NCBI GenBank assembly: GCA_050950285.1 | Contig: JBMNHG010000003.1 | Coordinates: 186,001 to 250,000, forward strand | DNA length: 64,000 nucleotides | From: Kiritimatiellia bacterium | GTDB lineage: Bacteria > Verrucomicrobiota > Kiritimatiellia > RFP12 > JBMNHG01 | Direction: 5' to 3' | Shown here: positions 27,586 through 46,010 of the stretch, piece by piece | Layout: each line of letters begins with the position of its first letter | How positions within the stretch are numbered: position 1 is the first letter of the stretch | Made by a program: the position numbers and the translations under genes | The notes under the pieces: model-generated | Database searches by the model: none | The model's input: the letters and a program-made list of their open reading frames with translations, nothing else | What the model was told of the DNA's origin: nothing

Positions 27586-28317
27586 ATGAACATGAAGAGC
27601 GTTTTGACCGTCGCGGCCCTCTGCGCCGCTTGCCTGACCCTCCCGGCCGTCGCGGCACCGCGTGTCTCCGACTCCTGTGGAATGGACTACCTCGTGGCCG
27701 CCCAGAATCTCTCTCCGTGGTACGCGGGCGCCTTCTTCCGCAACCACGACCGCGACATCACCCTCGACAACGGCATCCGCCACAGGTTCAACACCGACCG
27801 CGCCGGCGGCTTCGTGGCCTTCGACATCACCCGCTGGCTCACCGTGTACGGCATGGCCGCCTGCACCTGGAACAACTTCGACGACGTGAGCCACCGCCAG
27901 GATACCTCCACCTTCTACGGCGCCGGCCTCTGGTTCAACATCCTCGATCACGACCTCCTCGACGGCCTGATGCTCGAGAACCGCTTCCGCCTCGACGCCT
28001 GCGCCCAGTTCATGATGGGCGACACCGAGATCGTCGGCGAGGATCTCTCCTACGTGGAGTTCTACGGCTCCCTCACCGCCAGCATCGTGAACGAAATCGT
28101 CGGCGACAAGTCCATGTGGCCCGAGGCCATCGGCGTCTTCTTCGGCCCCTCCGTCACCTCGTGGGACAGCAGCGACTTCGATGCCGACCACGAGGACCTC
28201 GGCTTCGCCGTGGGCCTGGACGTGTACCTCACCCGCCGCACCATCCTGAGCGCCGCCTTCGAAATCTACGAAAAGGGCGAAAACGCCACCGGCATAACCC
28301 TCGGCACCCGCTTCTGA
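27586..28317 (+). CDS. Outer-membrane beta-barrel protein
   Basis: Signal peptide, alternating amphipathic strands, C-terminal ...GITLGTRF. Confidence 0.7.
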   Translation: MNMKSVLTVAALCAACLTLPAVAAPRVSDSCGMDYLVAAQNLSPWYAGAFFRNHDRDITLDNGIRHRFNTDRAGGFVAFDITRWLTVYGMAACTWNNFDDVSHRQDTSTFYGAGLWFNILDHDLLDGLMLENRFRLDACAQFMMGDTEIVGEDLSYVEFYGSLTASIVNEIVGDKSMWPEAIGVFFGPSVTSWDSSDFDADHEDLGFAVGLDVYLTRRTILSAAFEIYEKGENATGITLGTRF

Positions 28318-28344
28318 TCCCCCCCTCCCATTGCTCCGTGCCCC

Positions 28345-28383
28345 AAACGGCGCGCCGCAGAAAAAGCGGCGCGCCGTTTTTTT
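28345..28383 (+). terminator. Rho-independent terminator
   Basis: AAACGGCGCGCCGC-agaaaaa-GCGGCGCGCCGTTT followed by a T-run. Confidence 0.8.
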
Positions 28384-28385
28384 CG

Positions 28386-28414
28386 TTCCACCCCGCGCAT
28401 CCGCTTGGTATGAT
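28386..28414 (+). promoter_or_regulatory. Putative sigma70 promoter for the sugar kinase
   Basis: TTCCAC-N17-TATGAT with TG extended -10. Confidence 0.45.
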
Positions 28415-28460
28415 GCCGGTATCCGCACACGTGTCGAAACTTCGTATTCCAGGGTATGTC

Positions 28461-29981: not shown

Positions 29982-30007
29982 CCCGGCGCATCCCGTCCCG
30001 TCCGGCG

Positions 30008-30844
30008 TCAGGCCATGCCGAACAGCCTTTGGGCATTGCGGCGGGTGATGGCGGCGATGCCGGAGGGGTCGGTACGCCGCTCGCGGGCGAGGCAGGCCGC
30101 GGTGTGGACGACGAAGGCCGGCTCGTTCGGACGCCCGCGCAACGGCACGGGCGCGAGGTAGGGGCTGTCGGTCTCGATCAGAAGCCGGTCGTCCGGAACG
30201 CGCCGCGCCACGTCGCGCAGCGCGTCCGCATTGCGGAAGGTGACAATCCCGCTGAAGCTCACGAAGAAGCCCAGTTCCACGCATGCCTCCGCCATCGCCG
30301 CCGTGCCCGTGAAGCAGTGGATGACGCCCGGTCGGCCTTCGGCGGCCAGCCCTCCCGCTCCGCCCATGATATGCTCGCGCAACAGGGAAAGGGTGTCTTC
30401 CTCCGCCTCACGCGTATGCACGATTGCCGGAAGCGCGTGCTCCGCGGCCAATGCCAGCATCCGCGCGAAGAGACGCCGCTGCTCCGCCCGGCCCGCCCCG
30501 TCATGGTAGTAGTCGAGGCCTATCTCCCCCACGGCGCGGAGCGGGAAGGCATCGTCGCGCACGGTGTCCGCCACCTCCGCCTCGAAGCGCGCCATCTCGT
30601 CTCCCGGCATCCCCGCGCAGGAGCGATCCAGCCCCAGCGCCGCGCCCAGCGACGGCATCTGGCTCGACTCGGACGAACGATCCGCTGCCAGGCCCACGGC
30701 GCGCCGCACCCCGGCGTTGAGCACGGGGTTCCCACCCACCGCCATCACGTGCGTCACCCCCGCCGCACGGGCCCGCACCAGCAGCCGCGCCGTGTCGCTT
30801 CCCTCGAAATGGGCGTGACTGTCGAAATATCCGCATTCGTCCAT
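30008..30844 (-). CDS. tatD: TatD-family hydrolase
   Basis: FDSHAH, GEIGLDY, IVHTREA, GVIHCFTG, SFSGIVTF, LIETDSPYLAP. Confidence 0.93.
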   Translation of the reverse strand: MDECGYFDSHAHFEGSDTARLLVRARAAGVTHVMAVGGNPVLNAGVRRAVGLAADRSSESSQMPSLGAALGLDRSCAGMPGDEMARFEAEVADTVRDDAFPLRAVGEIGLDYYHDGAGRAEQRRLFARMLALAAEHALPAIVHTREAEEDTLSLLREHIMGGAGGLAAEGRPGVIHCFTGTAAMAEACVELGFFVSFSGIVTFRNADALRDVARRVPDDRLLIETDSPYLAPVPLRGRPNEPAFVVHTAACLARERRTDPSGIAAITRRNAQRLFGMA

Positions 30845-30872
30845 GAAACCCACGATAGGACATTCCCCCCGA

Positions 30873-30979
30873 AACATCAACCATCCCGGAAGCCCTCCCG
30901 GGAAAACGAATTCCCATGCGCCTGCAGGTTGCAGGCGGACGCCTCCGACGCCGACGCTTTCCCCCGAATTTCAAGGCTG
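30873..30979 (+). repeat. 107-bp direct repeat copy 1 (probable solo IS end)
   Basis: Matches 33467-33573 with about 7 mismatches; contains CCCCGAATTTCAAGG near its end. Confidence 0.8.
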
Positions 30980-31113
30980 GCTTCGCGCTCTTCACGTCGC
31001 GCGAAAACGGGTCGAAGTCCTGTGCGGCATGTACAAGACCGGCATGCCGTTCAGCCTTCAAGCTGCGGGAGGCGTAACTTGTCGACAACCTCGCCATTTT
31101 GCGCTTTACTTGC

Positions 31114-31267
31114 TACTAACTCGGCCACAATTCATACTGCAAAACAGGGGCACGGGTTTTCCAACCCGTGACACGGACAGGAATGTCCGTGCCCCTTTCC
31201 CAGCTCCAAATTCCAGCTCCCCATGCCTCAATCTTCGTGCGCAGCGCTATTTGTGGCCGGGTTAGTA
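31114..31267. mobile_element. 154-bp MITE (TA-flanked, IS630-like ends) carrying a REP doublet
   Basis: TACTAACTCGGCCACAA (31114-31130) and TTGTGGCCGGGTTAGTA (31251-31267) form a 17-bp IR with 1 mismatch; internal hairpins CACGGG-TTTTCCAA-CCCGTG and CACGGACA-GGAA-TGTCCGTG. Confidence 0.7.
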
Positions 31268-31484
31268 ATAGCTTGTCCTCCTGCTTCCTCGTTCTCGGGC
31301 CAACACTGGCCCTCTACGAGATACATGCCCGGCGGCGGGCCAAAGTGGCGGACGGTTGGCGAAAAAAGTTGGCGCGGCCGAATCCATGCTTGACGGTTTC
31401 GCCACGACCGATGTACAAGATTCCCGTACTCGATCATGCGAGCGTGTGCCTCTGTGCGCTCGTCATGTCGGAGAGACGCATTCG

Positions 31485-32209
31485 ATGCGTTACCTGCTCA
31501 AATCGTGGCGATTCTGGCTGCTGCCCCTTGCCCTTGCAATGTTTTTACCGGTCAGAATGCGACGTTTGGCGTCAACACCACACCTTCCGGAATCACCCTT
31601 CCCGAGGGTCTTCTAACGTGGGGCGGTCTTGCATCGGGGACCGCACCAGAAGCGGACGTCACGTTCAACACCCCCAATTTTCTGGAGGTCGTTTCCGTTA
31701 CATGTGGAGGAAAGACAAAGACGGCTTTGGTTGCCATCAGAGATCAGCCATCTGGCATAGGCGAAACAGCCTATGCCTCGTTACATGCTGTTTATACAGC
31801 GATAGCTATGGCAAACAACCTTATTGGGACCGATGCAACAACGCTGGAACCATTTATTTGAGCAAATTCCACCTATCCTGGAATCCAACACAACACGGTT
31901 GCTGATGCTGCCCGCCATGCCTACTGGACGTGCTTACTCACCAGATACACCGTTGCAGGATACGCGGAAGGCCTGAGTACTCAACACGAAGTATCAAGCC
32001 CAGGCCCATCTACCGAGACGGTCATGGACCTTCACAACAACCTGATTGGCATTTCAATTGCGGGCGGACACACGCACACCTCCGGGCTGGCATGTTGTCG
32101 GTCCGCTGTTCAGGGCGCAGTTTCAGAAGGGGATCTGTGGTATCTCGATTCGTCCTACGAGGCCGTAAATACGGCAGAGGATGCGCTTCTCCAGTCCACC
32201 AACAAGTAA
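31485..32209 (+). pseudogene. Decayed secreted toxin gene with DUF6973-like C-terminal domain
   Basis: Signal-peptide-like start MRYLLKSWRFWLLPLALAM is out of frame with the body; in-frame TGA at 31859; continuation has DAARHAYW...QHE...MDLHNNLIG. Confidence 0.65.
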
Positions 32210-32223
32210 CGAGGGGCATCGGA

Positions 32224-32862
32224 ATGCGAACAGTGATTGCAGTTGGACTCATAATCCTTTGCGGCTCGAATATCCGGGCCGCAGATTCCGATCTGTTCCC
32301 GCTTCAAGGGCTGAGACTCGGAATGACGTCAAGCGATTTGCTGAAAGCTTATCCACATGCCAAAACGGCATTCGTCAAAAAAGACGGTGCAGGCCAATTG
32401 ACTGAAGGATTACTGCTCTGCGAGATAGCCAATAGTGCTTATTGGGACTCTGCTCTGATCAGGGTGCAGGAAGGGGAGGTGCAGTCGTGGTCTTACGTCC
32501 GCACAAAGGATTTTGACAGCGCAAGCAGAAGTGTGGGGGCGATCCATAAGGCACTCGTGGAGACTGTGGGCGGCACGTCCGAGAAGAAGGTAGCTTACCA
32601 TCTCTTGAAGCAAGGCAAAGTCCGGTCTCCCGTGTTTGTTTGGAAATTCGGCGATGTTCTTGCCGCGTTTACCCACAGTCCCGTTAAGGAACATCAATCC
32701 GGCGAGCCGTTCATCTGCCAACTCACGATTTTCCGCGATATCAAGGGTCTACAAAGCCTGTTTGATGTGGCTACAGATGAAAAGGACAAGGACTCCGAGT
32801 TGTTCTTGGAAGTAACGAGTGGAAGTGAAGTAACGAGTGGAGATGCGAACGCGGGCAAGTAA
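32224..32862 (+). CDS. Exported hypothetical protein, putative immunity protein
   Basis: GAGGGG RBS; signal peptide MRTVIAVGLIILCGSNIRA; low GC; directly follows the toxin remnant. Confidence 0.65.
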   Translation: MRTVIAVGLIILCGSNIRAADSDLFPLQGLRLGMTSSDLLKAYPHAKTAFVKKDGAGQLTEGLLLCEIANSAYWDSALIRVQEGEVQSWSYVRTKDFDSASRSVGAIHKALVETVGGTSEKKVAYHLLKQGKVRSPVFVWKFGDVLAAFTHSPVKEHQSGEPFICQLTIFRDIKGLQSLFDVATDEKDKDSELFLEVTSGSEVTSGDANAGK

Positions 32863-33205
32863 CACGATAGCAGCGATTATAGCTCTGGTCTTGGTCACCT
32901 GCGCCTTCTGGGTGTATTTGAATTGCCAAGGCCACTCTATTACGGTCGTAAATTCCGGGATGAAGCCAATCAGCGCTCTTGTAGTGACCGTTTGTGGCGC
33001 GGATTATTCGTTTCAGAATGTTCCCCCTGGCGGTCAGAGTCATCAGGCGTTTTTGATCACCGGAGATAGCGGCTTTCTTGTTCGAGGGCAATTTGAAGAT
33101 GGAGTTGCTATCCATGGTGGCTTTGGTTACGTCACCAAGAATGTCTCGCGACAGCATGTGGTAGTAGTTGTTCACGATAACGGGTCCGTGATCGGCAAGC
33201 AGTGA
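32843..33205 (+). CDS. Small membrane-anchored hypothetical protein, putative immunity protein
   Basis: N-terminal TM IAAIIALVLVTCAFWVYL then a beta-rich domain; low GC. Confidence 0.55.
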   Translation: MRTRASNTIAAIIALVLVTCAFWVYLNCQGHSITVVNSGMKPISALVVTVCGADYSFQNVPPGGQSHQAFLITGDSGFLVRGQFEDGVAIHGGFGYVTKNVSRQHVVVVVHDNGSVIGKQ

Positions 33206-33373
33206 TCTTCTTCCGGATCAGCGTCTGCTCTCGCAAGCTCGTGCCATCGCAACCGCTCCGCGTCCGCACACGGCATCTGTCCACGCACATGCCGCTCCAG
33301 TTTCTGGTCACCTCGCGTCAACCACGCCGCCTCCCAGCGAAACGCCGCCTTTTTCAGACGGGTAAGCTGCTGC

Positions 33374-33466
33374 GACGAGATGTTTTCCTCGAACATCGTC
33401 GTGGAGGTGCGGAACAACATCCTGGCAAGGGGCATACCGGAGCTGTCGTTCCCGATTGGATATACG
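33374..33466 (+). pseudogene. Fragment of a further hydrolase-toxin C-terminal variant
   Basis: [29 protein letters not shown] aligns with [27 protein letters not shown] and TMFTNTIPVAHRNELLAKAIPALSPSAG. Confidence 0.65.
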
Positions 33467-33573
33467 AACATCAACCATCCCGGAAGCCGTCCCGGGGAAA
33501 CGAATTTCCATGCGCCTGCAGGTCGCAGGCGGACGCCTCCGACGCCGGCGCTTTTCCCCGAATTTCAGGGCTG
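33467..33573 (+). repeat. 107-bp direct repeat copy 2
   Basis: See 30873-30979. Confidence 0.8.
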
Positions 33574-33656
33574 ACTTTTTTCCCCCCGCCCCGCATACTG
33601 TGTGTCGCCATGGGATCCGGCGGGTCGCCGGCCTGCCCCATGGGATGGCAGTGGAT

Positions 33657-36600
33657 ATGAACAAGCGCATCGCGATCGTCGCGGCGGCTCTTGTGCCGGT
33701 GGCGTCCCTGCAGGCGCAGGCGGGCTTCCCCTCTCCGGGATTTGCGGGCGAGCCGCACAACAAGACGGATCTGGCGCTGGCGTACGAACGGGGGCAGGCG
33801 TCGGGCGTCGGGCTGTTCTTCCCCGTGACGAACCGCGCCCTCACGGTGTGGGGCGGGACGGTCGACCGGACGGCGGCCGCCACGAACGGATTCGGCGCGG
33901 GGTTCCTGGACGGGCTCGCGGCGACGAATTTCGGCGGGGTCGAGATCTTCCCCGTCACGCTGCGCACGGACGACGCGAGCGGCGTCATCGGCTTCCACGA
34001 CGCGGGCGGCTCCCCGTTCGACGCGCTGCCGCCGCTGTCCGGCGCGGGCTACGCCCCGGACTGGATCGCGGAGCTGCACGGCGTGCCGGACGCGCCGACG
34101 AACGGCCTCTCCCAGTCCGCGCTGGACTTCACGCGCCTGCTGCTGCTGCCGTCGCACGTCGAGATGGAGTGGCATTTCGTCGACGCGACCAACCTCGGCG
34201 CCTACGCGGAGGCGCGGCGGAGCTTCTGGAACCCGCCGGGCGGAGGCGGGACGGGCGGGACGAACGGGCTGCGGTTCACGGGCATCCGGGTGGACTCCAA
34301 CGCCGTGCAGATCGCCCTGGCATGGCCGGAGAACCATCCGCTGCCGGGGAGCCGGCTGGACATCCTCTGCGCGCCGCGCCTCGACGCGACGAACGCGGCG
34401 GGCGGCGTCGCGTGGCATCCGCTGGCGCAGATCCCGGTCGAGCCGTCCGGGGGCTCCGCGTCCAACTCGATCCCCTTGAACCTGCTCCCGCCCGCGCAGC
34501 AGGCGGATCCCGACGGGCCGGCCGTCACGAACACGGCGGACTCCCTCTATGTCTCCGGCGTGGCCTACACCAACGTCGCCGCGCCGTTCGATGCGGAGGC
34601 GTCCGCCTCCGCGTTCTTCCGCGCCGCTTCGCTCGTCGACGCGGACGGCGACGGCCTTTCCGACGCGCTGGAGACCTGGGTCCATCTCACCGACCCCGAC
34701 GACGACGACACGGACGACGACGGCCGCCACGACGGCGCGGAGATCGCGCTGGGGCTGGATCCGCTCGACGGGAGCGACGGCCCCGACGCCGACCCCGACG
34801 GCGACGGGCTTCCGAACGCCCTGGAGGCCGCGCTGGGGACGGATCCGCGCGACGGCGACAGCGACGGCGACGGCCTCACGGACGGGGAGGAATACGGCCC
34901 GCCGTCGGTCGCGGCGACGGCCTTCCGGTGGTTCGACGCGTCGGGCGGGACGGATCTGACCGCGCGGTTCGCGTCCAACATGGACAATGGCTGCGCGGAG
35001 GGGGCGCTCCCGTTCCCGCTCTTCTTCGGAGGGCGGGCCCTGACCAGCCTGTCGGCCAACGCGAACGGGATCGCCGGGTTTTTCCCGGGCGCCGGGACGA
35101 TCGGCGCCGGGCGGTACGCCAATGGCGACATGGGCCGTGCGCACATGCCGTCCGGCTGCGGCCTGCTCGCCGCCGGGTTCTGGGACGACCTGTGCCTCTA
35201 TCCCGCGCTGGGTCCCGCCGTCACGCTGGCGGATGTCGCGACAAACGGCCACCGCCATTGCGTCGTCGAATACAAAAACGCGGGCTTCTATTCCGGCGGC
35301 GCGACCACGAACAACCTCGTCTCGTTCCAGCTGGTCTTCGAGGAGGGCGTCTCGAACCGCTTCCGCGTGTTCTACCGGGACGCCAACGGCCGCGGCGACG
35401 GGCGCTCGGCCACGCTGGGGGCGCGGACGGTCCCGCAGTCGCTCCAGTTTTCATGCGACACGGCGTCCGTCGCGGACGGCCTCGCGCTGGAATACCGCTT
35501 CGGGATCGGCACCGGCCCGCTCGACCCCGATACCGACGACGACGGGCTGGACGACGGCGCGGAGCTTGCCCTCGGCACCGACCCGTTTGGTTACGACACC
35601 GACGGCGACGGTCTTCGGGACGGCGAGGAGGCGGAGGCCGGCACCGACCCGCTCGACCCCGACACCGACGGCGACGGGCTGGGCGACTACTGGGAGTTCT
35701 GGAACATGCCGGAGTTCGACCCGCTCGACCCGTCCGACGGCCTCTCGGACTGCGACGGCGACGGCCTCTCCTTCGCGGAGGAATATCTCGGGACTCGCGG
35801 GCACGCCTCGAATCCCAACGACTGGGACACGGACGGCGACGGCCTCTCGGACGGCGCGGAGGCCGCGCTCGGGACCGATCCCTACCACCGCGATTCGGAC
35901 CGGGACGGGCTGGACGACCATGACGAGATTCCCGCCGGAACGAATCCGCTGAAGGCCGACACCGACAACGACGGCATGCCGGACGGGTGGGAGGCCGCGC
36001 ACGGCTTCGACCCGTCCGACCCGTCCGACGGCCCCGCCGACGCCGACGGAGACGGGCTGTCCAACAAAAACGAGCGTTATAAAGGCACCGACCCGCGCGA
36101 CCCCGACACCGACGGCGACGGGCGCACGGACGGCGCGGAGGTCGGCGGCTCCCCGACTTCCGACCCGCTGGACCCCGACACGGACGGCGACGGGCTGAAC
36201 GACGGCGAGGAGATCGCGCGCGGGACCAATCCCCGGAAACAAGACACGGACGGCGACGGCATGAAGGACGGGTGGGAGGACGTGCATGGCTTCGACCCGC
36301 TCGACGCCGCCGACCCCGACCCCGGCGCCGACCCCGACGGCGACCACATCCCCAACCTGCGCGAGGCCGCGCTGGGCACCTCCCCGCACTTGGCGGACAC
36401 CGACGGCGACGGCCTCGGCGACCACGGGGAAGCGGGGTGGATCGGCGCGGGGCTGCCGCCGCTGGCCGTCCCCGGCGGCACGAACGTCCTCGCGCTGATG
36501 GGCGACCCCGACTCCGGCCAGGCCGTCCTGCCGCTGCCCTTCCCGGTCGAGATCCAGGGCTCCGCCTGCTCCAACGTCTGCGTCGGGATCGACGGCTTCG

Positions 36601-39566
36601 TCGAACTGGGCCGGTCGGCCGCAGGCGGACGCCTTTCGGACAGCGTCCTGCGACTGGATGCCTTCCGCGACAACCTGAAGGCCTATCCCGCCGGGCTCGG
36701 CTCATCGGTCACGCTCGCGGACATCGCGACCAACGGCGCGCGGTACTGCGTCGTTGAATACAAAAACATGGGGTTCCATTCCGGCGGCGCGACCACGAAC
36801 CACCTCGTCTCGTTCCAGGTCGTCTTCCAGGAGGGCGTCCCGGATCGCGCCGACGTCGTCTTCCCCGCCGCCGCCGGGCGCGGCGACGGGCGCAACGCAC
36901 GGCTGGAGGCCCGAGCCCCGTACACCACGCTCGCCTATTCCAGGCACCAGCCCGCCGTCTCCCCCGGCCTCTCCATCGCCTACCATTTCGGCACCGGCAC
37001 CGACCCGCTCCGCGCCGACAGCGACGCCGACGGGATCGGCGACGCCGACGAGATTGCCGCCGGGCTCGACCCTCTCGCCTCGGACACCGACGGCGACGGC
37101 CTCTCCGACGCCTTCGAGCTCGCCAGCGGCATGAGCCCGTTCGTCCACAACGACACCGACGGCATCGCCGGCAACGGCGCGGACGAAGACCCCGACGGCG
37201 ACGGGCTGGCGAATTCCGAAGAATACCTGAACGGCACCGACCCCTTCAACCCCGACAGCGACGGCGACGGCGTCCCGGACGGCGACGAGATCGGCCAGGG
37301 CTCCGACCCGCTCGACGACTTGGACAGCCAGCCCCGCGAGGTCGTCCCCTTCACGATCCTCTTCGGCGACGAGAGCGGCAGCCACTCCGAAAAATACCGC
37401 CTGACGGTCACTCCGGTATCCGGCGACACCCGCCCCGGCTGGACGCTGGTGAACCGCGCGTTCGGCCAGCCCGACCCGCTCACCGTCAGGCTTGCCGCCG
37501 GGGCGACCTACGAGGTCGCGCTCGGGCACGCCGCCACCGACCCCGACTACGACGGCGCCCCCCGCCCCGACTACGACTACACGCTCGAGTTCTCCCCGGA
37601 CGCCTCCGCGCCCGGCATGGCCGTCCTCGCCGACGACCCCGACGGCATCCTCGGCTTCCATGACGAGAGCGACACCTTCTACGCCGCCGGGAAGACCGCC
37701 CGGCTCACCGTCGTCCGCGCCGGCCTCGTCCCCGACTACAACCGCGACCGGACGATCTCCTCCGCCGAAGCGTCCGGGGCCACCTTCCGCCTCTGGCTCA
37801 ACGACGACGCGGACGAGGGCGATGTCGCGGAAGGTGGAAGCGACCTCCCCGGCCAGTTCTCCGGCTGGCTGGCCAAGGCCAACTTCGGGGACAGGCGCGT
37901 CAACGGCCGCGCCGACCTGCCGGACTTCTTCCCCGTGTGGCTGGACATCGGCGAAGCCCTCGCCCACCTCGACGCGACGCCCGGCGGCGAGATCGAGGTC
38001 AGGCTGAGCCAGAAAAACACTGCGCTCGCCTATGTCCCGACCGCGCTCTCCACCAACGACGCCGGCGCCTTCCTCGTTTCGGACGTCGCGGGCCTCGCCT
38101 CCGCCGCCACGCGCAAGATCACCAACGCCGGCGTGGCGATCCCCGGTTCCTTCGTCGATGCCGTCCGCGCCGACCCGTCCAAGGGCGTCATCCTCGTCGA
38201 GGGCCGCGCGGCGACCTCCGAGCCCCTCGTCGCCGAGATCTGGCGCAATGGCAGGAAGATCGTCAGGATGGAGCTCCCCCTGCGCGTCACGCCCGTGGAG
38301 CAGATGTACACCCGCGTCAACCTGCGCAACGGCGCCGCCGTCGTGACGCCGGGCTCCGTCTTCCTGCCTGCCAGCGGCAAGAATGTTGTCTTTGTGCACG
38401 GCTTCAACGTGACCGAGGACGAGGCTCGTGGCTGGCACAGCGAGATGTTCAAGCGCCTGTGGCAGTCCGGCTCCAACGCCCGCTTCCATGCGGTGACGTG
38501 GAAGGGTGACATCGGATGGCCCAATGCCCTTCACTACCACGAGGATGTGGCCAGTGCCTTCCAGACCGCGCCGCACCTCAAGAATTACGTCAATGGCTTG
38601 TCCGGCGGGAAAATCATGATGGCCCAGAGCCTCGGCAACCTGGTCGTCTCCTCGGCCATCGCCGACCACGGCATGGGCGTGGACAAGTTTTTCATGTTCC
38701 ACGCCGCCGTCGCAGCGGAGGCGTTCGACATGTCGCAATGGAACACCGACGCAATGTATCAGGTAATGGTGCCCGGCGAATGGTATCCTTACCCGTCGTC
38801 AAGCTGGAGTGCGAAATGGCATGGGCACTTTCTGTTCGCCGGGCATCCGAATGACGACCGTGGATACCTGACGTGGAAGAACCGCCTCTTGTCCGTATCA
38901 TCCGCGACCACTCTCTACAACTATTATTCGTCCGGGGATGAGGTCCTCGAACTGTTTTCCGAGGCACCCGACAACAACGAGGGAATGGTGCCCTCTGACA
39001 CGTTGACATGGGGACGCTACGCATGGCACAAACAGGAGACGCACAAGGGGTGCGGCGCTCTCGACCCGTCCGGCACCTCGTGGGCGGGGTGGGGGTTTGC
39101 CGACCCGCCCCGTATGCGCGTGTTCAGCGGCACGGGGCCGACGGGAAACATCCTCTACGATTACGTTCCCAATACGGCCACGAACAAAGCCGCCATGCTG
39201 GCCTATCTGGCGGGAGACCCTATCCTACCACTGGACTTCTTCGAGGAGAACGTGATTTTTAAAGACAATCCGCCTGAAATCTTCCTGCCGGAAATCCCGG
39301 CGGACACGCGGAACGAAATCCTCGCCAAAGGCATTCCCGCACTGTCTGGTCCGACAGGAAGGCAAAGTGTCGGTATCAGGGATGGGGCCGGCAATTTGCT
39401 TCCTGGCAGAAACATCGACATGAATGAGGTTGAACGTCCCAATGGTTGGGGACGGACGAATCAACATTTTGTACAACGCTGGTTGCATGGTGATTTGAAA
39501 GCCATGGCGTTCTTCTATAACTTTAAGCTCTATGAAGATGTGGTTTCCAAAGGAGGCTTGAAATGA
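33657..39566 (+). CDS. 1969-aa secreted protein: signal peptide, thrombospondin type-3-like DxDxDG repeats, duplicated beta-domain, C-terminal alpha/beta-hydrolase (DUF900/lipase-like); putative polymorphic toxin
   Basis: [22 protein letters not shown]; many DTDGDGLxDGxE repeats; VVFVHGFNV oxyanion motif, AQSLG nucleophile elbow, [15 protein letters not shown] drops in the last ~800 bp. Confidence 0.85.
39033..39100 (+). repeat. Cassette junction repeat copy 1 (QETHKG..LDP.GT.WAG.GF)
   Basis: CAGGAGACGCACAAGGGG... recurs at 40756 and 43083. Confidence 0.85.
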
Positions 39567-40738
39567 AAAGGAAAATGTATGTGTTTGCCGCGCTGTTGAC
39601 CATAGCGCTTGTTGGCCTCTTCATTCGGAGACCTGAAAAGCAAGGAACAGACGCCCCCAAACACAAGCAACACGATTCGCCGGAACAATCTTCCCCGATT
39701 GCGCTCGTTGAGGCAGATAATGCGGAGTCAAGCGGGACAGGCCGCGGAAAAATGCCTCTTCCCGGTCGCAGAGTGTACAAGCCGACAAGTCTTCAGGTCG
39801 GGCAGGGAGGGGCGACGGTAATCGAGATTGACCACGGGTTAAGATTGGTGGACAGGTTCAAGGGGGAACGCTATTCGGATGATGTTGAAAATGGGAAAAG
39901 AAAAGGCGCAATGGGAGCCATCACGTTACGAGTGGTTGACTCGACAGGAGTTCCGGTCGAGGGTGCGGAACTGTTCGGCGGTTTCTGGACTAACAATCCC
40001 GATGATACGCCCGTGACAGGTATAAGTGACGAAAACGGGAATATATCAGTAGAACATCTCTGTACTGGAGACTTTAACTTTTCGATCACTAAGAATGGCT
40101 ATTACAGGACAACGTTGAGATATTGGTTTTTCAAGACGGGGTTTGATTGTGCCAAGGACGGACGCTGGCTGCCGTGGAATCCCACTGTGGAAGTCACGCT
40201 AAAAGAGAAGCGGAATCCAATTTCGATGGCTGGCGTGAACCGCCTGCTGTTTGCGTTCCCGATACGCCAAAAGGCGGGTTTTGATTTCGAGATTGGAGAT
40301 TTGGTTGAACCGTTTGGCAACGGGAAGACTCCCGATATTTCATTCTGGTATGATTCATGGCAAGACATTACCCCGTACTGTTATTCCAATCGTTTTGTTG
40401 TGGCGGTTGAGGATGGCGGAGCTATAGCAACAATGCGCAAGGATTCATTCAGCGATTTCAAGTTCGCCTATGCGCCGCCGGATTCAGGGTGGGTCTCCGG
40501 CTTAGCACTCGGCATGGTCCGAACAGAGGACCAGATATTGAGTAATGTCGCTCTCGCCAAAGAGGAATACTGGGTGATTGCCGTGCGGAGAGGAGAGATA
40601 AAGCGGTTTGCAGTGGTCAGCGATTTTGAGTTCGGCGGCTCTGAGCGTGGGACTAATTTCTGCGGTGTGCTACTATCGTATTATCTGAATCCGAACGCGG
40701 GAGATACCAACCTTGAGATCAAGGGACATTATCCGTGA
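39563..40738 (+). CDS. Membrane-anchored carboxypeptidase-regulatory-like domain protein; putative immunity protein 1
   Basis: ATGA overlap with the toxin; N-terminal [38 protein letters not shown]-terminal [13 protein letters not shown]; low GC. Confidence 0.75.
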
Positions 40739-41232
40739 TGAAGTACCGTCAGAAGCAGGAGACGCACAAGGGGCGCGGCGGCCTCGACCCGGCCGGCACC
40801 TCATGGGCCGGCTGGGGTTTCGCGGAACATGCGGAACTGGTAAATATGTATCCGCCATCCTATGTGATGATCCGCGACTACACACTCGCGGAAGCCAACT
40901 CCGCCACCCCCGGCCAGTTGCGCGACAGTCCCGTCTTCCGCCACGACCCTTCCACCATGTTCACCAACACGATCCCCGTCGCGCACCGCAACGAGCTGCT
41001 GGCGAAGGCAATCCCCGCGCTCTCACCCTCGGCAGGGGGAGTTATGCTCCCGCAACTTACGAGTTCTAGGAATTTCGACATGAACACCGACTTCAAGCCT
41101 GATGGCGGAGTGTGGGGGCGGGATCATGGCGACTACGGCAAGCGCTGGCTGCATAACGACATGAGGGAGATGGCCTTCTTCTATACACACAAGCTCTTCA
41201 AGCATCTGGTCGTGCAGGGGGATTTGCAATGA
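40735..41232 (+). CDS. Orphan alternative C-terminal tip of the hydrolase toxin
   Basis: Begins [24 protein letters not shown] and contains RNELLAKAIPALS, NFDMN and RWLHNDMREMAFFY; collinear with the last ~175 aa of 33657-39566 but divergent. Confidence 0.8.
   Translation: MMKYRQKQETHKGRGGLDPAGTSWAGWGFAEHAELVNMYPPSYVMIRDYTLAEANSATPGQLRDSPVFRHDPSTMFTNTIPVAHRNELLAKAIPALSPSAGGVMLPQLTSSRNFDMNTDFKPDGGVWGRDHGDYGKRWLHNDMREMAFFYTHKLFKHLVVQGDLQ
40756..40823 (+). repeat. Cassette junction repeat copy 2
   Basis: Similar to 39033-39100. Confidence 0.85.
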
Positions 41233-42437
41233 GAAATACCAGACTTGTTCTAGTTCTTGCCGTTGCCGTCTGCGCCGTCATCATTGCCGTGCTGCTGCTG
41301 CGCCGTGATGACCGTGGAATACGGCACCCGACAAGCGGTGCTGGCGGCACTTCTAATGTGGTACAATCAGCCGCGGTCGTCGCGCACCACGTCGAAGGAG
41401 CACCCGAATGGGAAGATGCGTCGGCAGAGCGAGTTGCAACGCGCTTGGCAACACAGATAAGCGATAGCGAACTGGTCCGCCTTGAACCGGGGCACCCCAA
41501 ACCCGCGCATATCACCAGGGCACAGGAGGAGGGTGCGCGGGCCAGAATCACCTTCCTTGTGGTTGACGACCGTGGGCGTCCGGTTCCGGATGCCACGGTC
41601 GCCGGCGGGTTCTACAACCACGGGCGGGGCGACCACAGCTTCTCGCGCCAGACGCGGAGCGACGGGACGGTCGAGCTTGAGGATCTCTGTGTATGGGAGA
41701 TAAACTACCATGTCGAGAAGCCAGGCTATTATGAGACGCGGGATCGCTATGATTTCTACAAGATTGGGTTCGACTGCGTTAAAAACGGACGCTGGATACC
41801 CTGGAACCCGACAGTCGAGGTTGTTCTCAAACGCAAGATTAATCCGATCGCAATGTATGTTCGCCGAGGCAAGCTCAACAGAGTGGCGCTACCGAAACTC
41901 GACGATTGGACTGGGTTTGATTTGGAGTGTTCTGACTGGCTTCAACCGTATGGCAATGGCAAACGTGAAGATTTTCAGGTGTTTTTCCGGCGTGGAGAAA
42001 CGAATCACATGGGGGTGTTTAATCAGTTTTCACTGTCGTTCCGATTTTGCAAGCCTTTTGACGGGGCATACCTGTCTCATAAAGACAATACAGGCAGCCA
42101 ACTTCAATGCGTCTATGAGGCTGACACAAACCGTCTCTACGATACTAAAATGGAGTTTTCTTATGAAAGATTGACTGATCTGGCGAATGGTCGTGTTGTA
42201 GTCAACAACAAATTGCTGGGGGAAGAGGAGTATTTGGTGCTAAGGGTCAGGAGCGAGTCGGATGCTGATGGCAGACTAATTAAGGCAAACTATGCAAAAA
42301 TCTGTCCGCCGCTATTTGCGGCTTTTTATGGATTCCAGATGACGACCTACTTCAATCCCAACGAAAATGACCCGAATCTTGAGGCCGACACGAGTAGGAA
42401 CCTTCTCAATCCTAGCGACCTGGGTTTTGCACCATGA
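41229..42437 (+). CDS. Paralogous membrane-anchored putative immunity protein 2
   Basis: ATGA overlap with the orphan tip; TM anchor; [47 protein letters not shown]. Confidence 0.75.
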   Translation: MRNTRLVLVLAVAVCAVIIAVLLLRRDDRGIRHPTSGAGGTSNVVQSAAVVAHHVEGAPEWEDASAERVATRLATQISDSELVRLEPGHPKPAHITRAQEEGARARITFLVVDDRGRPVPDATVAGGFYNHGRGDHSFSRQTRSDGTVELEDLCVWEINYHVEKPGYYETRDRYDFYKIGFDCVKNGRWIPWNPTVEVVLKRKINPIAMYVRRGKLNRVALPKLDDWTGFDLECSDWLQPYGNGKREDFQVFFRRGETNHMGVFNQFSLSFRFCKPFDGAYLSHKDNTGSQLQCVYEADTNRLYDTKMEFSYERLTDLANGRVVVNNKLLGEEEYLVLRVRSESDADGRLIKANYAKICPPLFAAFYGFQMTTYFNPNENDPNLEADTSRNLLNPSDLGFAP

Positions 42438-42460
42438 TGCAGCGCTTCAGCAATGAGCCC

Positions 42461-42541
42461 CACAACGACATGAGGAAGATGGCCTTCTTCTATAACTTCA
42501 AGCTCTATGAAGATGTGGTTTCCAAAGGAGGCTTGAAATGA
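42461..42541 (+). pseudogene. Chimeric extreme C-terminal toxin remnant
   Basis: HNDMRKMAFFY (orphan-type) followed by [15 protein letters not shown] (identical to the main toxin end). Confidence 0.8.
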
Positions 42542-43065
42542 AAAGGAAAATGTATGTGTTTGCCGCGCTGTTGACCATAGCGCTTGTTGGCCTCTTCATT
42601 CGGAGACCTGAAAAGCAAGGAACAGACGCCCCCAAACACAAGCAGCACGATTCACCGGAACAATCTTCCCGGATTGCGCTCGTTGAGGCAGATAATGCGG
42701 AGTCAAACGGGACAGGCCGCGAAAAAATGCCTCTTCCCGGTCGCAGAGTGTGCAAGCCGACAAGTCTTCAGGTCGGGCAGGGGGGGCGACGGTAATCGAG
42801 ATTGACCACGGGTTAAGATTGGTAGACAGGTTTAAAGGGGAGCGCTATTCGGATGATGTTGAAAAGGGGAAAAGACAAGGCGCAATGGGAGCCATCACGT
42901 TACGAGTGGTTGACACGACAGGAACTCCGGTTGAGGGGGCGGAACTGTTCGGCGGTTTCTGGACTAATAATCCCGATGATACGCCCGTGACAGGTATAAG
43001 TGACGAATTACCTGAACCCGAATCCGGATGATACTAACCTTGAGATCAAGGGACGTTATCCCTGA
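42538..43065 (+). pseudogene. Duplicated immunity-1 gene with a 1-bp frameshift and ~650-bp internal deletion
   Basis: Near-identical to 39563-40033 and then to 40681-40738; GGGAGGGG collapsed to G7 near 42780. Confidence 0.88.
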
Positions 43066-43232
43066 TGAAGCACCGCCAGAAGCAGGAGACGCACAAGGGG
43101 TGCGGCGCTCTCGACCCGTACGGCACCACATGGGCGGGCCGGGGGTTCTGGGAGCGGGCCTTGCCGCTTGTGGGCAACGTCTACAGCAAGAACGCCGCCT
43201 TCCTGCACGACTCGGGAATCGCGCGCGTATAG
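43065..43232 (+). pseudogene. Third, truncated orphan toxin tip (contains junction repeat copy 3 at 43083-43148)
   Basis: [28 protein letters not shown] then diverges (WERALPLVGNVYSKNAAF...). Confidence 0.75.
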
Positions 43233-43280
43233 CAACAGGGGACAGACATGCATTCCATCTGCAACGATGGAGGTTCATCT

Positions 43281-43868
43281 ATGAACGCCAAGATATCCAA
43301 TCCGCTGATACTCCGCTGTATTTTGGGGTTGATCTTCACCCTTGTGTTCTATGCGATGGCGATTTCCATTGCGGGGGGGGGTGATATACTTGGCTTTGAC
43401 AGGTGCCGTGAATGAAATACGAACGACAGGAAGCCTCCATCTCTCCTGGATATTGCTTGTCATTGCGGCGCTTCGTTGATCTCTCATCCTTGGGAAAGCC
43501 AGAAATTCCAGTGCGGCGATTCTCCCGTTCAACCCCTATTGTTTCTATTGCAATGGGCTTGTGGCGAGTTTGCGCAAGAGCAATGGGACACGGTGTGTTC
43601 CTGGAAGAACCTTGGAGATGTCGAGATTGGCGGAGCCCTCCAACAAGCATGTGAACAGGTCATCAAGGATGCGCAAGACAGGGCGCTTGCAGAAGCGGAC
43701 AGGAGTCATCCGGAAGCCGACAAGCGATCAACGGTCATTCTGCGGCCGGCGAACGGGGAAAAAACGATCGTTACCTGTAGATGCGGGTGCAAGATGAGGG
43801 TTTTGCGTCGCGGCAAAATGCGTAGCGTTCGGTGCCCCAAGTGTCGTACCCTGGTTTCACTTCCATGA
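43281..43868 (+). pseudogene. Degraded low-GC membrane-protein gene with C-terminal Zn-ribbon
   Basis: GGAGG RBS, MNAKISNPLILRCILGLIFTLVFYAMAISIAGG broken at a G9 run (43373-43381); a distal frame ends CRCG...CPKC. Confidence 0.4.
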
Positions 43869-45934
43869 ATGCAAGGGCTGAGGACAGGGACATCAGAGCG
43901 AAGCAATTTCGCTGCGGGAAGCGGCGCGGGGTTGTTTCGCGGGAGGTGCTGGCGATGGGCCTCCTCTTCGCCGTACTGCCTTCGTGCGCCGAGGCCCCGC
44001 GGCTCTCCCGCGGCGTGCCGCAATCCGGGTCGAACGCTCCTTGGGTGTTGGAGGCAATCCGCACGGCGGACCAGGTCCTCGCCGCCGGCGGCGTGCAGGT
44101 GCCGGAGGAGGCGGGCGACTGGATCTTCTACTACTCCTGCCCCGACCACGACCGCGAACTCGAACGACGCGGCGGTGAAAACGTCTGCCCCGTCTGCGGG
44201 AAGACCTACGACACCGCGAAGGTTCGCGGCGCCTGGGCCACGCGCCGCCACGACCTTGCGAACGAGCAGTGCCTCGCCCTGGCCCGAGCCTGGCGGGCCA
44301 CCTCGAATCCCGCCTATGCCGAATGCGTTTGGCACGCGCTGCTCCTCTATGCGGAGCGAATGCCGGACTGGGGACGCCACGACCGCTGGGGCCGCAAGGG
44401 GCTGCTCGCCGTCGGCGGCGGACGCCGCTACGCGCAAAGCCTCGACGACTCGTGCGGGATCATCGCCCTCGCCCGCGCCTTCGACATGGTTCGCGACTCT
44501 CCCGCCGCGCAATCCGAGGCGGAACGCGAACGCATCGTCGAGGGCCTCCTCCGCGAAACCGCCGGCAGCATCTATGCGCTCTATCCGCTGTACGAGGCGC
44601 GCGACAACCACATGGCCTGGTTCAACGCCGCCGCGGCCGTCGTCGGCGCCGTCATCGGCGACGATTCGCTTGTCGCCCGCGCTCTCGACGGATCGAAGGG
44701 GCTGCGCTGGCAACTGGAAAACAGCGTCACGAAGGACGGCGTCTGGTACGAGGGCGCAACGGGCTACCACTACTACGCGCTCGACGCGATTGTCCATGCC
44801 ATCGAGGCCGCCCGCGCCGCCGGCTTCGACGTAGACGATGCCGCGGAAACGGCCGAGAAGATGTTCCTCGCGCCCGCCCGCCTCTGCTATCCGGACAACA
44901 CCATCCCCGCCGTGAACGATTCCTACAAGTGGACCTTCCCGCACAACGACCCCCGCCTGCGCGATGCGGCGGAGGTCCTCGATTCCCCCGGACTGCGAGA
45001 CATCGCCGCAAACGGCTTCGACCCTTCCCGCCTCGACCTCCCCAGCGAAGCGCTCGAAGGTGCGGGGCTGGTCTTCCTCCGCACCCCCGCCGACGCGCCC
45101 GGAGGACAAGCCGTGGCGGTCCTCGATTTCGGCGAACACGGCGACTGGCACGGCCATCCCGACAAGATGAACCTCCTCTACTTCGCGGCGGGCCGCGAGG
45201 TCTTCACCGACATCGGCTGGATCTCCTACCGCTGCCCCGAATACAAAACGTGGGCGCGGACCACCATCGCCCACAACACGGTCACCCTCGACGGCGCAAA
45301 CCAATCGCCCGACAACGGCTCGCTGCCCGCCTTCGAAGACCGCATGCGCGACGAAGGCGGCTTCGCCTTCGCGATCGGCGAAAGCCGTGGCGCGTATCCC
45401 GGCGCGACATTGCGCCGGGCGCTCGTGCTCTTCGCGGACGGCACGCTCGTCGACCTCTTCCGGGTCGAATCGGAAAAGCCGCGAACCATGGACTGGGCGC
45501 TGCATACGACAGGCTCGCTGTCCGTCCCCGAGGCAGGCGGGGAATGCGGGAAACTGGGCGACGATGAAGACCACGGCTACCCGCGCATGCGCGAAGAAAG
45601 GCGGCACGCCGCTTTTTCCGACGTGCTGTGGACGGCCCTGGACGGGGACGCCCCCGTCGAGACGCGGCTGCTGGCTCCGGACGGCGTGCCGGAAACGCTC
45701 TACACCGCGATCGGCGTGGGCCATCGCCTCGACGAACGCGCCCCCATGCTCGTCCGCCGCCGGGAAGCCGCCGCCACGACCGTCTTCGCGGCCGTCCATT
45801 CCCCCGCTCCCGGAAGAGCCGCCACCTGGAGCGCCACATCCGAAGATCCGGAGCGGATTTCCCTGCAAGGATCGGCCGGAGACCGCACCGTCTCCGTCGA
45901 ATGGGACGGCGCGAGCACCTTGACCGTCCGATGA
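43865..45934 (+). CDS. Heparinase II/III / alginate-lyase-type polysaccharide lyase
   Basis: DNHMAWFNAA, DGVWYEGATGYHYY, HGHPDK, AHNTVTLDG; N-terminal CPDH...CPVC; start uncertain. Confidence 0.85.
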   Translation: MNARAEDRDIRAKQFRCGKRRGVVSREVLAMGLLFAVLPSCAEAPRLSRGVPQSGSNAPWVLEAIRTADQVLAAGGVQVPEEAGDWIFYYSCPDHDRELERRGGENVCPVCGKTYDTAKVRGAWATRRHDLANEQCLALARAWRATSNPAYAECVWHALLLYAERMPDWGRHDRWGRKGLLAVGGGRRYAQSLDDSCGIIALARAFDMVRDSPAAQSEAERERIVEGLLRETAGSIYALYPLYEARDNHMAWFNAAAAVVGAVIGDDSLVARALDGSKGLRWQLENSVTKDGVWYEGATGYHYYALDAIVHAIEAARAAGFDVDDAAETAEKMFLAPARLCYPDNTIPAVNDSYKWTFPHNDPRLRDAAEVLDSPGLRDIAANGFDPSRLDLPSEALEGAGLVFLRTPADAPGGQAVAVLDFGEHGDWHGHPDKMNLLYFAAGREVFTDIGWISYRCPEYKTWARTTIAHNTVTLDGANQSPDNGSLPAFEDRMRDEGGFAFAIGESRGAYPGATLRRALVLFADGTLVDLFRVESEKPRTMDWALHTTGSLSVPEAGGECGKLGDDEDHGYPRMREERRHAAFSDVLWTALDGDAPVETRLLAPDGVPETLYTAIGVGHRLDERAPMLVRRREAAATTVFAAVHSPAPGRAATWSATSEDPERISLQGSAGDRTVSVEWDGASTLTVR

Positions 45935-45967
45935 CCGCAAGGGCGGGGGAGAAGCGTTGGGGGGGCA

Positions 45968-46010
45968 AAAAAGAACGAAGGGCCATCCCGTTTCCGGGAC
46001 GGCCCTTTCT
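45968..46010 (-). terminator. Rho-independent terminator after rplT
   Basis: AAGGGCCATCCCG-tttc-CGGGACGGCCCTT stem with a nearby A-run on the + strand. Confidence 0.6.

Follow-up and report, generated by a model that had tools for sequence, protein, structure and literature searches.

Does the array of partial genes behind a giant gene in a Kiritimatiellia genome represent a polymorphic toxin system, with exchangeable C-terminal ends and matching immunity genes, on a carrier of a new kind? The locus lies in a stretch of 64,000 nucleotides (nt) (G000:C3:186001-250000, hereafter the window, to which coordinates refer unless a contig or locus is named) of a 4.05-Mb genome with ~66% guanine-cytosine (GC) content and 99.35% completeness. 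It comprises a gene for a 1969-amino acid (aa) protein with a signal peptide, calcium-binding repeats and an alpha/beta-hydrolase end, followed by a partner gene and by further hydrolase ends (“tips”) and partner genes, whole or decayed. A preliminary description made from the window sequence had read this layout as the orphan-module logic of known toxin systems on a new carrier, and our analysis supports that reading: the feature is real, far beyond chance, and the locus probably encodes a Sec-dependent polymorphic lipase toxin together with its immunity proteins. The elements on which this reading turns are listed below, with scores from hidden Markov models (HMMs) described further on.

33657-39566, + strand: giant gene, an open reading frame (ORF) without internal stop, 1969 aa (protein P0001)
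37689-38366, + strand: companion domain, aa 1345-1570, ~225 aa, which co-occurs with the hydrolase
38373-38987, + strand: hydrolase core, with the HGFN strand, the nucleophile elbow AQSLG (Ser) and SSGDEVL (Asp); core HMM E 9.7e-86
39006-39563, + strand: tip 1, with the cap insertion, last strand, His (WLHGD) and C-terminal helix; tip HMM E 1.2e-48
39563-40738, + strand: partner 1 (putative immunity), 391 aa, AGGAGG upstream; imm HMM E 1.9e-120
40735-41232, + strand: orphan tip 2, 165 aa, which begins at the KQETHKG junction and retains WLHND; tip HMM positions 10-170, E 2.1e-49
41229-42437, + strand: partner 2 (cognate of tip 2), 402 aa; imm HMM E 1.9e-96

The giant protein consists of a signal peptide (recognized by eye in the first 22 aa), an N-terminal domain, TSP3 repeats, a carrier beta domain, the companion domain, and the alpha/beta hydrolase, and the ORF, the TSP3_bac matches, the HGFN and AQSLG motifs, and an AlphaFold model of the end all bear out the architecture first proposed for it. 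Pfam detects TSP3_bac in 10 stretches (E 8.7e-62) and no other family at E ≤ 0.01; the carrier therefore has none of the Rhs, FHA, MafB, LXG, VgrG, or PAAR domains, as the preliminary description had held. The drop in GC noted there over the variable part is likewise found, from 0.68-0.74 over 33500-38499 to 0.46-0.58 over 38500-43999, with a recovery at 44000. Among PDB sequences, the sole match to the N-terminal 640 aa was a calcium-binding stretch of a biofilm protein (E 0.003), and the end of the carrier beta domain plus the companion domain (37305-38366) matched nothing at E ≤ 10. The companion domain was without Pfam or PDB sequence match, and aa 1240-1570 had no usable match in the protein Atlas. 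Two ~190-aa non-TSP3 domains interrupt the repeat stalk; within them, 35203-35425 and 36691-36913 are 78% identical at the nt level over 223 nt, and the one domain searched against Pfam gave no match. NCBIfam matches of the giant protein to CglD, MtsD, and Amuc_1099 were rejected as repeat-driven and far under the cut-offs.

Comparison within and between genomes shows where this protein varies. Two further loci were found in the same genome by tblastn and ORF reading, giving three paralogous giants in total. At locus B (C3:~668.3-674.19 kb), a partner comes after the second giant, then a full-hydrolase orphan with another partner, and finally an orphan tip behind which no partner gene is found; locus C, on the minus strand of contig C11 (264071-258315), holds the third giant. 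Measured in 50-aa windows, identity among the three proteins is 86-100% as far as ~aa 1540 and 2-50% beyond, and the orthologues P0249, P0248, and P0159 are ~70-93% identical to the giant up to ~aa 1675 and 29-53% from there on. The conserved N-terminal region with variable tips, anticipated in the preliminary description, is thus seen both in the three paralogues and in the orthologues. Since the flanks of the three loci share only a leader of ~110-130 nt before the start codon, no common transporter gene is linked to them. The hydrolase of locus C hardly differs from the orphan full hydrolase at locus B (C3:675133-676452), which suggests a recent copy or exchange between loci.

We modelled the hydrolase with AlphaFold from a 33-row alignment and assigned its secondary structure with DSSP (mean predicted local distance difference test, pLDDT, 86.7; predicted template modelling score, pTM, 0.89). 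In this model, Ser118 sits between strand 111-117 and helix 120-131, the Asp of SSGDEVL comes after strand 212-217, and His404 lies after strand 379-381 and before the final helix 412-426. The structure prediction proposed as a check in the preliminary description thus yields an alpha/beta-hydrolase fold, and the domain is, as modelled, a serine hydrolase with Ser, Asp, and His in the canonical places. A large insertion occupies residues ~218-378, of which 278-305 are modelled with low confidence; the orphan tips begin at helix 249-255 (KQETHKG), so that each tip supplies the cap, the last strand together with the catalytic His, and the C-terminal helix. All 72 units compared retain Ser, His, and Asp, including the His and Asp of WLHxD, a motif also kept by the orphan tips.

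Structural and sequence matches place this domain broadly. We compared the model with 48,161 chains using VIA-align and considered the first 50 rows, all of which are alpha/beta hydrolases (Z 13.8 to 11.6) that jointly span model residues 1-429. They include the lipases BlEst2 (Z 13.8, root-mean-square deviation (rmsd) 4.6, 188 residues aligned) and Lip_vut1 (Z 13.6, rmsd 2.7, 163 aligned), PGAP1 (Z 12.7), the effector Tle3 of a type VI secretion system (T6SS) (Z 12.6, rmsd 4.1, 220 aligned), and lysosomal phospholipase A2 (Z 12.2). With scores this close, the rows are as good as tied, and all that can be taken from them is the fold and a lipase/esterase flavour. Searched against the PDB as a single sequence, the hydrolase domain matched nothing at E ≤ 1, and a family profile placed pancreatic lipase-related protein 2 (PLRP2) on top (E 0.0032 and 0.0037) and also matched PLRP1 (E 0.011), in alignments that cover only ~105-120 residues around the elbow. 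The family DUF900 (PF05990) scored 15.7 bits against the window hydrolase (E 0.011; cut-off 20.5 bits) and was detected in 10 of 30 long homologues at E ≤ 0.001, nine of these at ≥20.5 bits.

The partner is predicted to be an envelope protein. The model of partner 1 (pLDDT 87.4) has a transmembrane (TM) helix at residues 2-21, a disordered linker, and two beta domains, of which residues 118-217 form a transthyretin-like domain (VIA-align Z 9.0 to carboxypeptidase D) and residues 220-385 resemble BfrB and HmuY (Z 11.6 and 9.9). An N-terminal hydrophobic segment occurs in 71 of 75 partner homologues, and the protein is most likely anchored in the inner membrane with both modelled beta domains in the periplasm. 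A word-indexed search yielded 77 relatives, from Kiritimatiellae and Hydrogenedentes records, which are named “hypothetical” or “Ig-like domain-containing”, and a protein Atlas search with the partner returned unnamed look-alike clusters only.

Tip 2 is 40% identical to tip 1, and partner 2 is 32% identical to partner 1. Read from the sequence, ATGA overlaps link the three tip/partner pairs at 39563, 41229, and 42538, as had been reported, and partner 1 and tip 2 meet at GTGATG. A 77-nt junction encoding KQETHKG..WAGWGF recurs at 39027, 40750, and 43077 with 84-86% identity (86% for the copy at 43077). Thus, both a partner gene downstream of the effector and orphan tip-plus-partner modules sharing a homologous junction are present at this locus, two features that belong to the general definition of polymorphic toxins as far as the consulted parts of PMC4436062 (Jamet & Nassif 2015) and PMC3482391 (Zhang et al. 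2012) describe it.

We then evaluated how far this arrangement holds across related loci. Scanning one genome per species gave 291 candidate stretches; 279 of them passed confirmation, and we retained 78 loci: by their labels, 26 are from Kiritimatiell- taxa or Pontiellaceae, 18 from Lentisphaerota (Spyradenecus checked), 17 from Verrucomicrobi- taxa and allies, and 11 are unclassified, while the 6 with other labels are taken to be mis-binned contigs. We built one HMM each for hydrolase core, tip, and partner and ran them on these 78 loci, which contain 80 full hydrolase units, 70 of them assessable (≥1200 nt downstream). A partner-family gene lies within 450 nt downstream on the same strand in 69 of these 70 units. 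Long partner genes outnumber hydrolase units in 21/78 loci, and the partner genes of one locus are far from alike (31 pairs, median identity 38%, range 28-86%, none ≥90%). Outside full units, tip pieces occur in 14 loci and core pieces in 12, and when an orphan tip has an intact 3′ end, a partner gene follows in 7 of 8 assessable cases.

Pairwise distances among 72 units show the partner to be the fastest-evolving part (mean distance 0.71, against 0.63 for the tip and 0.52 for the core), with correlations of 0.77 between tip and partner, 0.74 between core and partner, and 0.88 between core and tip. Discordant pairs are more telling. When the core distance is ≤0.10, tips at ≤0.06 come with partners at ≤0.15 (5 pairs), and tips at ≥0.17 come with partners at ≥0.34 (6 pairs); these pairs represent ~4 independent cases, namely L047 versus the L032/L056/L077 group, L039/L040, L063/L069, and L028/L036. 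The reverse direction, with tip and partner closer than the core, is seen in L040/L041 and in L029 versus the L032 group. At the nt level, L047 and L056 are 85-100% identical over >2 kb up to ~225 nt into the tip and then ~50% identical through the partner; L039/L040 show the same drop, and in L063/L069 identity returns to 80-96% past the partner gene. Breakpoints vary, since switches are seen at different sites in different comparisons: before the hydrolase among the paralogues of this genome, after the SLGN elbow among orthologues, at KQExxKG..WAGWGF in the orphans of the window, and near a PVF motif in relatives. The strongest partial correlations involve the last ~90 aa of the tip (0.34) and the transthyretin-like domain of the partner (0.46), and 27 of the 50 partner clades with support are also present in the tip tree, against 20 in the core tree, a modest difference. 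Taken together, these sequence comparisons support the view that the partner follows the tip rather than the hydrolase core. The co-varying partners predicted for loci of the Planctomycetes–Verrucomicrobia–Chlamydiae (PVC) group were recovered: a partner follows 69 of the 70 assessable units, and partners change with the tip on near-identical cores.

A search with the last 429 aa against 1.84 billion cluster representatives placed the hydrolase in a family of 1969 representatives at E ≤ 0.001 (698 at E ≤ 1e-30). Among the best 150 of these, the match is nearly always C-terminal, in proteins of 179-3407 aa, and at least 100 of them align from ~aa 1345, i.e., from the companion domain onward and not from the hydrolase. 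All 17 further proteins in which the companion domain was found also have the hydrolase core; Big_1, PKD, cadherin-like, or LamG domains are present on their carriers. Pfam finds TSP3_bac on 24 of 30 long representatives and RCC1, beta-helix, PMP, MAM, or PA14 on others, and Rhs, FHA, LXG, PAAR, or VgrG families on none of the 30. One hydrolase domain is thus observed on distinct N-terminal carriers: from genome to genome, it is the carriers that change, and the hydrolase module stays constant. In an even sample of the phylum, the family is patchily distributed, in 69/401 genomes and 48/185 genera, and many of the genomes that have it carry several copies, with tip-only fragments beside a full copy. 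A minimal form, of 658 aa, is encoded at L005 (7206-9182) and lacks repeats; a hydrophobic segment at the N-terminus precedes the companion domain and the hydrolase. In the metagenomic proteins P0269-P0271, the companion-plus-hydrolase module is N-terminal (aa ~27-696), unlike its usual C-terminal place, and nucleoside hydrolase, choloylglycine hydrolase, or amidohydrolase domains come after it; such proteins could be atypical fusions, or neighbouring genes merged in gene calling.

The N-terminal domain of the giant protein (aa 24-330) was found in only 11 proteins. Three distant ones, 31-37% identical, have different C-terminal ends, and two of these proteins, P0252 and P0253, have the giant's beta domain (aa 1137-1359) as well. 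The alternative ends resemble an HExxH reprolysin-like protease (E 0.0023), a CHAP-like domain (E 0.0016), and a trypsin-like domain (E 0.23; AAHF and GDSGNP motifs recognized by eye). The CHAP-like module, present in 7 of the 401 sampled genomes, has an ATGA overlap with the next gene, which encodes a signal-plus-TM protein of another family (L093, L095); on weaker evidence, this module with its envelope partner fits the polymorphic-toxin pattern as well.

The remaining elements of the window locus are relics and the region before the giant gene.

33338-33493, + strand: upstream tip fragment (fourth tip piece), which abuts the leader repeat; tip HMM positions 68-117, E 7.9e-6
33467-33656, + strand: conserved 5′ leader, common to the three paralogous giant genes
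about 42458-42541, + strand: chimeric 3′ tip remnant; tip HMM positions 144-170, E 6.8e-8
42538-43064, + strand: decayed partner 1 copy, with a 1-nt frameshift and a ~643-nt internal deletion
43065-43232, + strand: tip 3 stub, 55 aa; tip HMM positions 10-37, E 0.0018

Partner 1, orphan tip 2, the paralogous partner 2, the tip remnant, and the decayed copy of partner 1 all lie at or near the places given in the preliminary description, and its fourth tip fragment upstream of the giant gene is recognized by the tip HMM; what it called a third tip does have tip homology, confined to the junction motif, but amounts only to a 55-aa stub. In the 3′ tip remnant, repeat alignment shows the initial ~34 nt to be tip 2-like and the remainder tip 1-like, with the crossover at the conserved AFFY codons, and by this alignment the remnant is a fossil of a real recombination event between tip 2 and tip 1. 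The decayed copy matches 39504-40033 with 97% and 94% nt identity (85% for a further repeat family). The offset shifts from 2975 to 2974 along it, hence the 1-nt frameshift; the equivalent of 40034-40676 is deleted, and ORF pieces remain at 42538-42795 and 42750-43031. Part of the upstream tip fragment (33373-33468) is 92% identical at the nt level to C3:676140-676235 and C3:677692-677787, in the orphan tips of locus B. The leader is 98.5% identical to the region upstream of locus C over 33527-33660 and 99% identical to that of locus B over 33553-33659, and its first 111 nt (33467-33577) are repeated at 30873-30983 (93%).

Evidence from sequencing reads was limited to short Logan contigs, and run labels place the organism in digester and bioreactor metagenomes. 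A 1297-nt contig of X13 connects position 38711, in core-like sequence, with the tip 2 junction at 40750 (side 53; the intervening stretch is not known) and carries tip 2-like sequence, with 39 other letters over 40909-41366, and partner 2-like sequence; X14 has a similar contig. These contigs hint at a relative with a tip 2-like end on a complete hydrolase and are no proof of switching. A joint in X10 from 40982 to 42524 was disregarded, its side being only 20 letters. Contigs of the RNA library X17 cover 41104-41673 and 41955-42493, and DNA can be present in such libraries.

Several observations concern the flanks. Between a tatD-like gene and the giant gene lies a low-GC island (0.51-0.57; 30873-33577), bounded by the 111-nt direct repeats at 30873-30983 and 33467-33577. 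Its ORFs (31436-31861, 31930-32862, and 32837-33205) matched nothing in Pfam and are without relatives in the genome or among the fetched loci, and we therefore do not tie them to the toxin system; the island may be what is left of an earlier locus copy. The stretch 33150-33375 is 93% identical at the nt level to C11:18270-18499. A fragment near the latter (C11:12429-12563) resembles the CHAP-like toxin end of P0253 (E 2.5e-6), so that C11 may hold relics of another toxin locus. Window positions 31112-31268 belong to a ~155-nt interspersed repeat with dozens of copies, 90-97% identical, spread over at least six contigs, partly in tandem arrays (e.g., C2:967621-968164 and C6:189004-189609); no Rfam family matched it at E ≤ 0.1, and it could be similar to miniature inverted-repeat transposable elements (MITE-like) or to repetitive extragenic palindromes (REP-like). 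Directly after the array, where normal GC resumes, a heparinase II/III-like or alginate-lyase-like gene is found at 43832-45934 (Hepar_II_III_C E 2.7e-20). Rfam returned nothing relevant within 28000-46000, and promoter and terminator scans of the locus were at chance level or uninformative.

We propose the following mechanism. The giant protein would be exported by means of its signal peptide and then leave the cell, probably via a secretin-type pathway: TssC was not found, the genome has six secretin genes, and export would thus consist of Sec plus an unspecified outer-membrane step. The calcium-binding TSP3 stalk would present the C-terminal module, i.e., the ~225-aa companion domain and the ~400-aa lipase-like hydrolase, the latter probably a phospholipase or esterase that would damage the membranes of competitors. 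The partner would bind the variable end of the hydrolase (cap, His loop, and last helix) and block the enzyme, thereby shielding the producer during export and from the same toxin of its neighbours. Recombination at conserved motifs of the hydrolase region (before the domain, after the SLGN elbow, at KQExxKG..WAGWGF, or near PVF) may bring silent downstream tip-plus-partner cassettes into the expressed gene, each exchange shifting toxin specificity and immunity jointly, and extra partner genes may protect against foreign variants. A more far-reaching version, which we put forward tentatively and hold to be somewhat less than an even bet, is that PVC bacteria (Kiritimatiellia, Lentisphaerota, and Verrucomicrobiota) own a widespread T6SS-free weapon, in which a Sec-exported giant repeat protein delivers the lipase module, the obligate companion domain carries this module to the periplasmic side of related cells, and specificity is reset by exchanging a partial catalytic fold (cap, catalytic His, and last helix) along with a new, transthyretin/HmuY-like class of immunity protein.

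A number of observations weigh against the interpretation as a toxin with immunity, or limit it. What we observe is the anatomy of the locus, its pattern among paralogues and orthologues, the synteny, exchanged cassettes in relatives, the fold, and the conserved triad; that the hydrolase is toxic and acts on a lipid, and that the partner binds it and protects, is inferred, as are the export route and delivery. For delivery in particular, a secreted protein of ~200 kDa would have to reach the periplasmic side of its target, which is a difficulty. The fold matches are to generic alpha/beta hydrolases, which leaves a lipid substrate conjectural, and Foldseek agrees weakly (top match lipase B, E 3.7e-4, template modelling score ~0.2). 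The window protein itself reads AQSLG instead of AHSLG, with Gln where 69/72 units have His before the Ser, and the locus C giant is truncated by a frame change just after its KQALFKG junction. Among the assessable units, L005 is the sole one without a downstream partner gene. Shared ancestry makes every distance correlation among tip, core, and partner high (0.74-0.88), and the partial correlations reach only modest values, 0.36 for tip and partner given the core versus 0.23 for core and partner given the tip. Lastly, the module contains a single enzyme family across genomes, so that “polymorphism” here means allelic variation within one fold, and the matches of the alternative reprolysin-, CHAP-, and trypsin-like ends are all under the Pfam cut-offs.

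Could the enzyme instead be a secreted digestive or host-directed lipase or esterase, the partner an accessory for self-protection or export, and the variation an adaptation to substrate or environment, with no competition between bacteria? Pairs of a phospholipase and an accessory protein of this kind exist, and several of our results would suit one: the enzyme and its downstream partner form a nearly invariant unit (69/70), an inhibitor would be useful while the enzyme crosses the periplasm, the fold is that of a generic lipase or esterase, and the organism occurs in digester and bioreactor metagenomes. However, such a function leaves unexplained why tip-plus-partner cassettes are kept silent, why 21/78 loci have extra, divergent partner genes (median identity 38%) without an enzyme, why three paralogues differ only at their enzyme end, why tip and partner switch together on nearly identical cores, and why the distribution is patchy, and we consider it unlikely.

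The silent cassettes would make sense if the giant were a surface adhesin or fibre whose C-terminal end is varied against phage or predators, as in pilE/pilS, the hydrolase being incidental or inactive. Its size and repeats, with adhesin-like calcium-binding units, the NCBIfam matches to CglD and MtsD (repeat-driven and far under cut-offs as they are), and the conserved recombination junctions of the partial cassettes agree with this; yet Ser, His, and Asp are invariant in 72/72 units and WLHxD is kept even in orphan tips, and the cassettes carry a co-varying envelope partner gene, which antigenic variation would not need. We therefore rate this explanation as highly improbable. It is more improbable still that the partner is a steric chaperone of the hydrolase. 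Lif lipase foldases are encoded downstream of their lipases and membrane-anchored, as the partner is, but they are helical, whereas the partner model is all-beta after its TM helix (transthyretin-like plus HmuY-like); no foldase Pfam family was matched, and extra partner genes and orphan cassettes would not be expected for a foldase. We thus retain the reading as a polymorphic lipase toxin with immunity proteins.

If this reading is correct, a large and unnamed toxin-immunity family, with 1969 cluster representatives and a presence in 69 of the 401 sampled genomes, would be added to the known bacterial conflict systems. It would do so in a group (Kiritimatiellia, Lentisphaerota, and Verrucomicrobiota of guts, rumens, and digesters) for which no interbacterial toxin system was found in the literature searched. 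The orphan-cassette logic of Rhs, CdiA, and MafB would extend to Sec-dependent carriers with TSP3 repeats, and recombination would be able to re-assort parts of a single enzyme fold along with its inhibitor, leaving a natural series of chimeric lipases and matched inhibitors. Many “hypothetical” giant proteins, and the “Ig-like domain-containing” proteins encoded next to them, would gain a testable role. As stated in the preliminary description, we do not recognize the locus as a described system: no account of a TSP3-hydrolase-partner system was found in the literature searched, which covered few subscription journals.

How, then, does the locus compare with systems already known? Among colicins and S-type pyocins, the likeness lies in a released, modular toxin with a C-terminal killing domain and a downstream immunity gene, sometimes several, while colicin loci contain no orphan modules, according to the part of PMC4436062 consulted. 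The loci studied here are, moreover, chromosomal, with no lysis gene seen, and end in a lipase-like enzyme rather than in a nuclease or pore-former. Zhang et al. list Tox-ABhydrolase-1, -2, and -3 and a class using Sec and the type II secretion system (Sec/T2SS) (PMC3482391). One of these three hydrolase families might coincide with the one described here; “thrombospondin” and “DUF900” are absent from the searched text of that paper. An enzymatic parallel is cinquedea, a secreted archaeal alpha/beta hydrolase and bactericidal phospholipase, whose archaeal homologues carry DUF900 in 69% of cases (bioRxiv 10.64898/2026.06.10.730825). In the available text of that work, cinquedea shares with the present hydrolase secretion, proximity to DUF900, an xHSLG-type elbow, and a Ser-Asp-His triad, and kills bacteria from outside through its phospholipase activity; it is, however, a single domain of 260 aa, exported by Tat and encoded as a single-gene unit, and “immunity” is absent from that text. 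By contrast, the enzyme considered here forms the end of a giant protein, is accompanied by a companion domain, a partner gene, and cassettes, and scores below the DUF900 cut-off.

The Tle/Tli pairs of the T6SS resemble the locus in combining an alpha/beta hydrolase with a Ser nucleophile and an envelope-located partner (Tle3/Tli3, structure 8boz), although the alignment of Tle3 to the hydrolase model (Z 12.6) is tied with those of many other hydrolases. They differ in that the present enzyme has a Sec signal, stands at the end of a 1969-aa repeat protein, and is accompanied by orphan sub-domain cassettes; VipB/TssC (PF05943) was not found in the genome, nor VgrG, PAAR, or Hcp domains on the giant protein. 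There is also a likeness to Rhs, CdiA, and MafB, which, in the parts of PMC3482391 and PMC4436062 consulted, are large secreted proteins with a conserved N-terminal part and a variable toxic C-terminal end, a partner gene immediately downstream, and orphan end-plus-partner cassettes with a short homologous junction, with several loci per genome and one end on different carriers. Set against these systems and LXG toxins, the locus lacks YD/RHS, TPS/FHA, DUF1020, and LXG domains. Its carrier has a Sec signal and TSP3 repeats, and a single enzyme family supplies all of its ends. What is exchanged is often no more than a portion of the catalytic domain (cap, His loop, and last helix), the breakpoints falling at several places within the fold, and the partner family is unnamed. 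Overall, by analogy, the logic appears to be that of Rhs, CdiA, and MafB, and the weapon would resemble Tle/Tli; the differences would lie in the carrier, in a Sec route independent of the T6SS, in the obligate companion domain, in the fold of the partner, and in exchanging only part of a catalytic domain.

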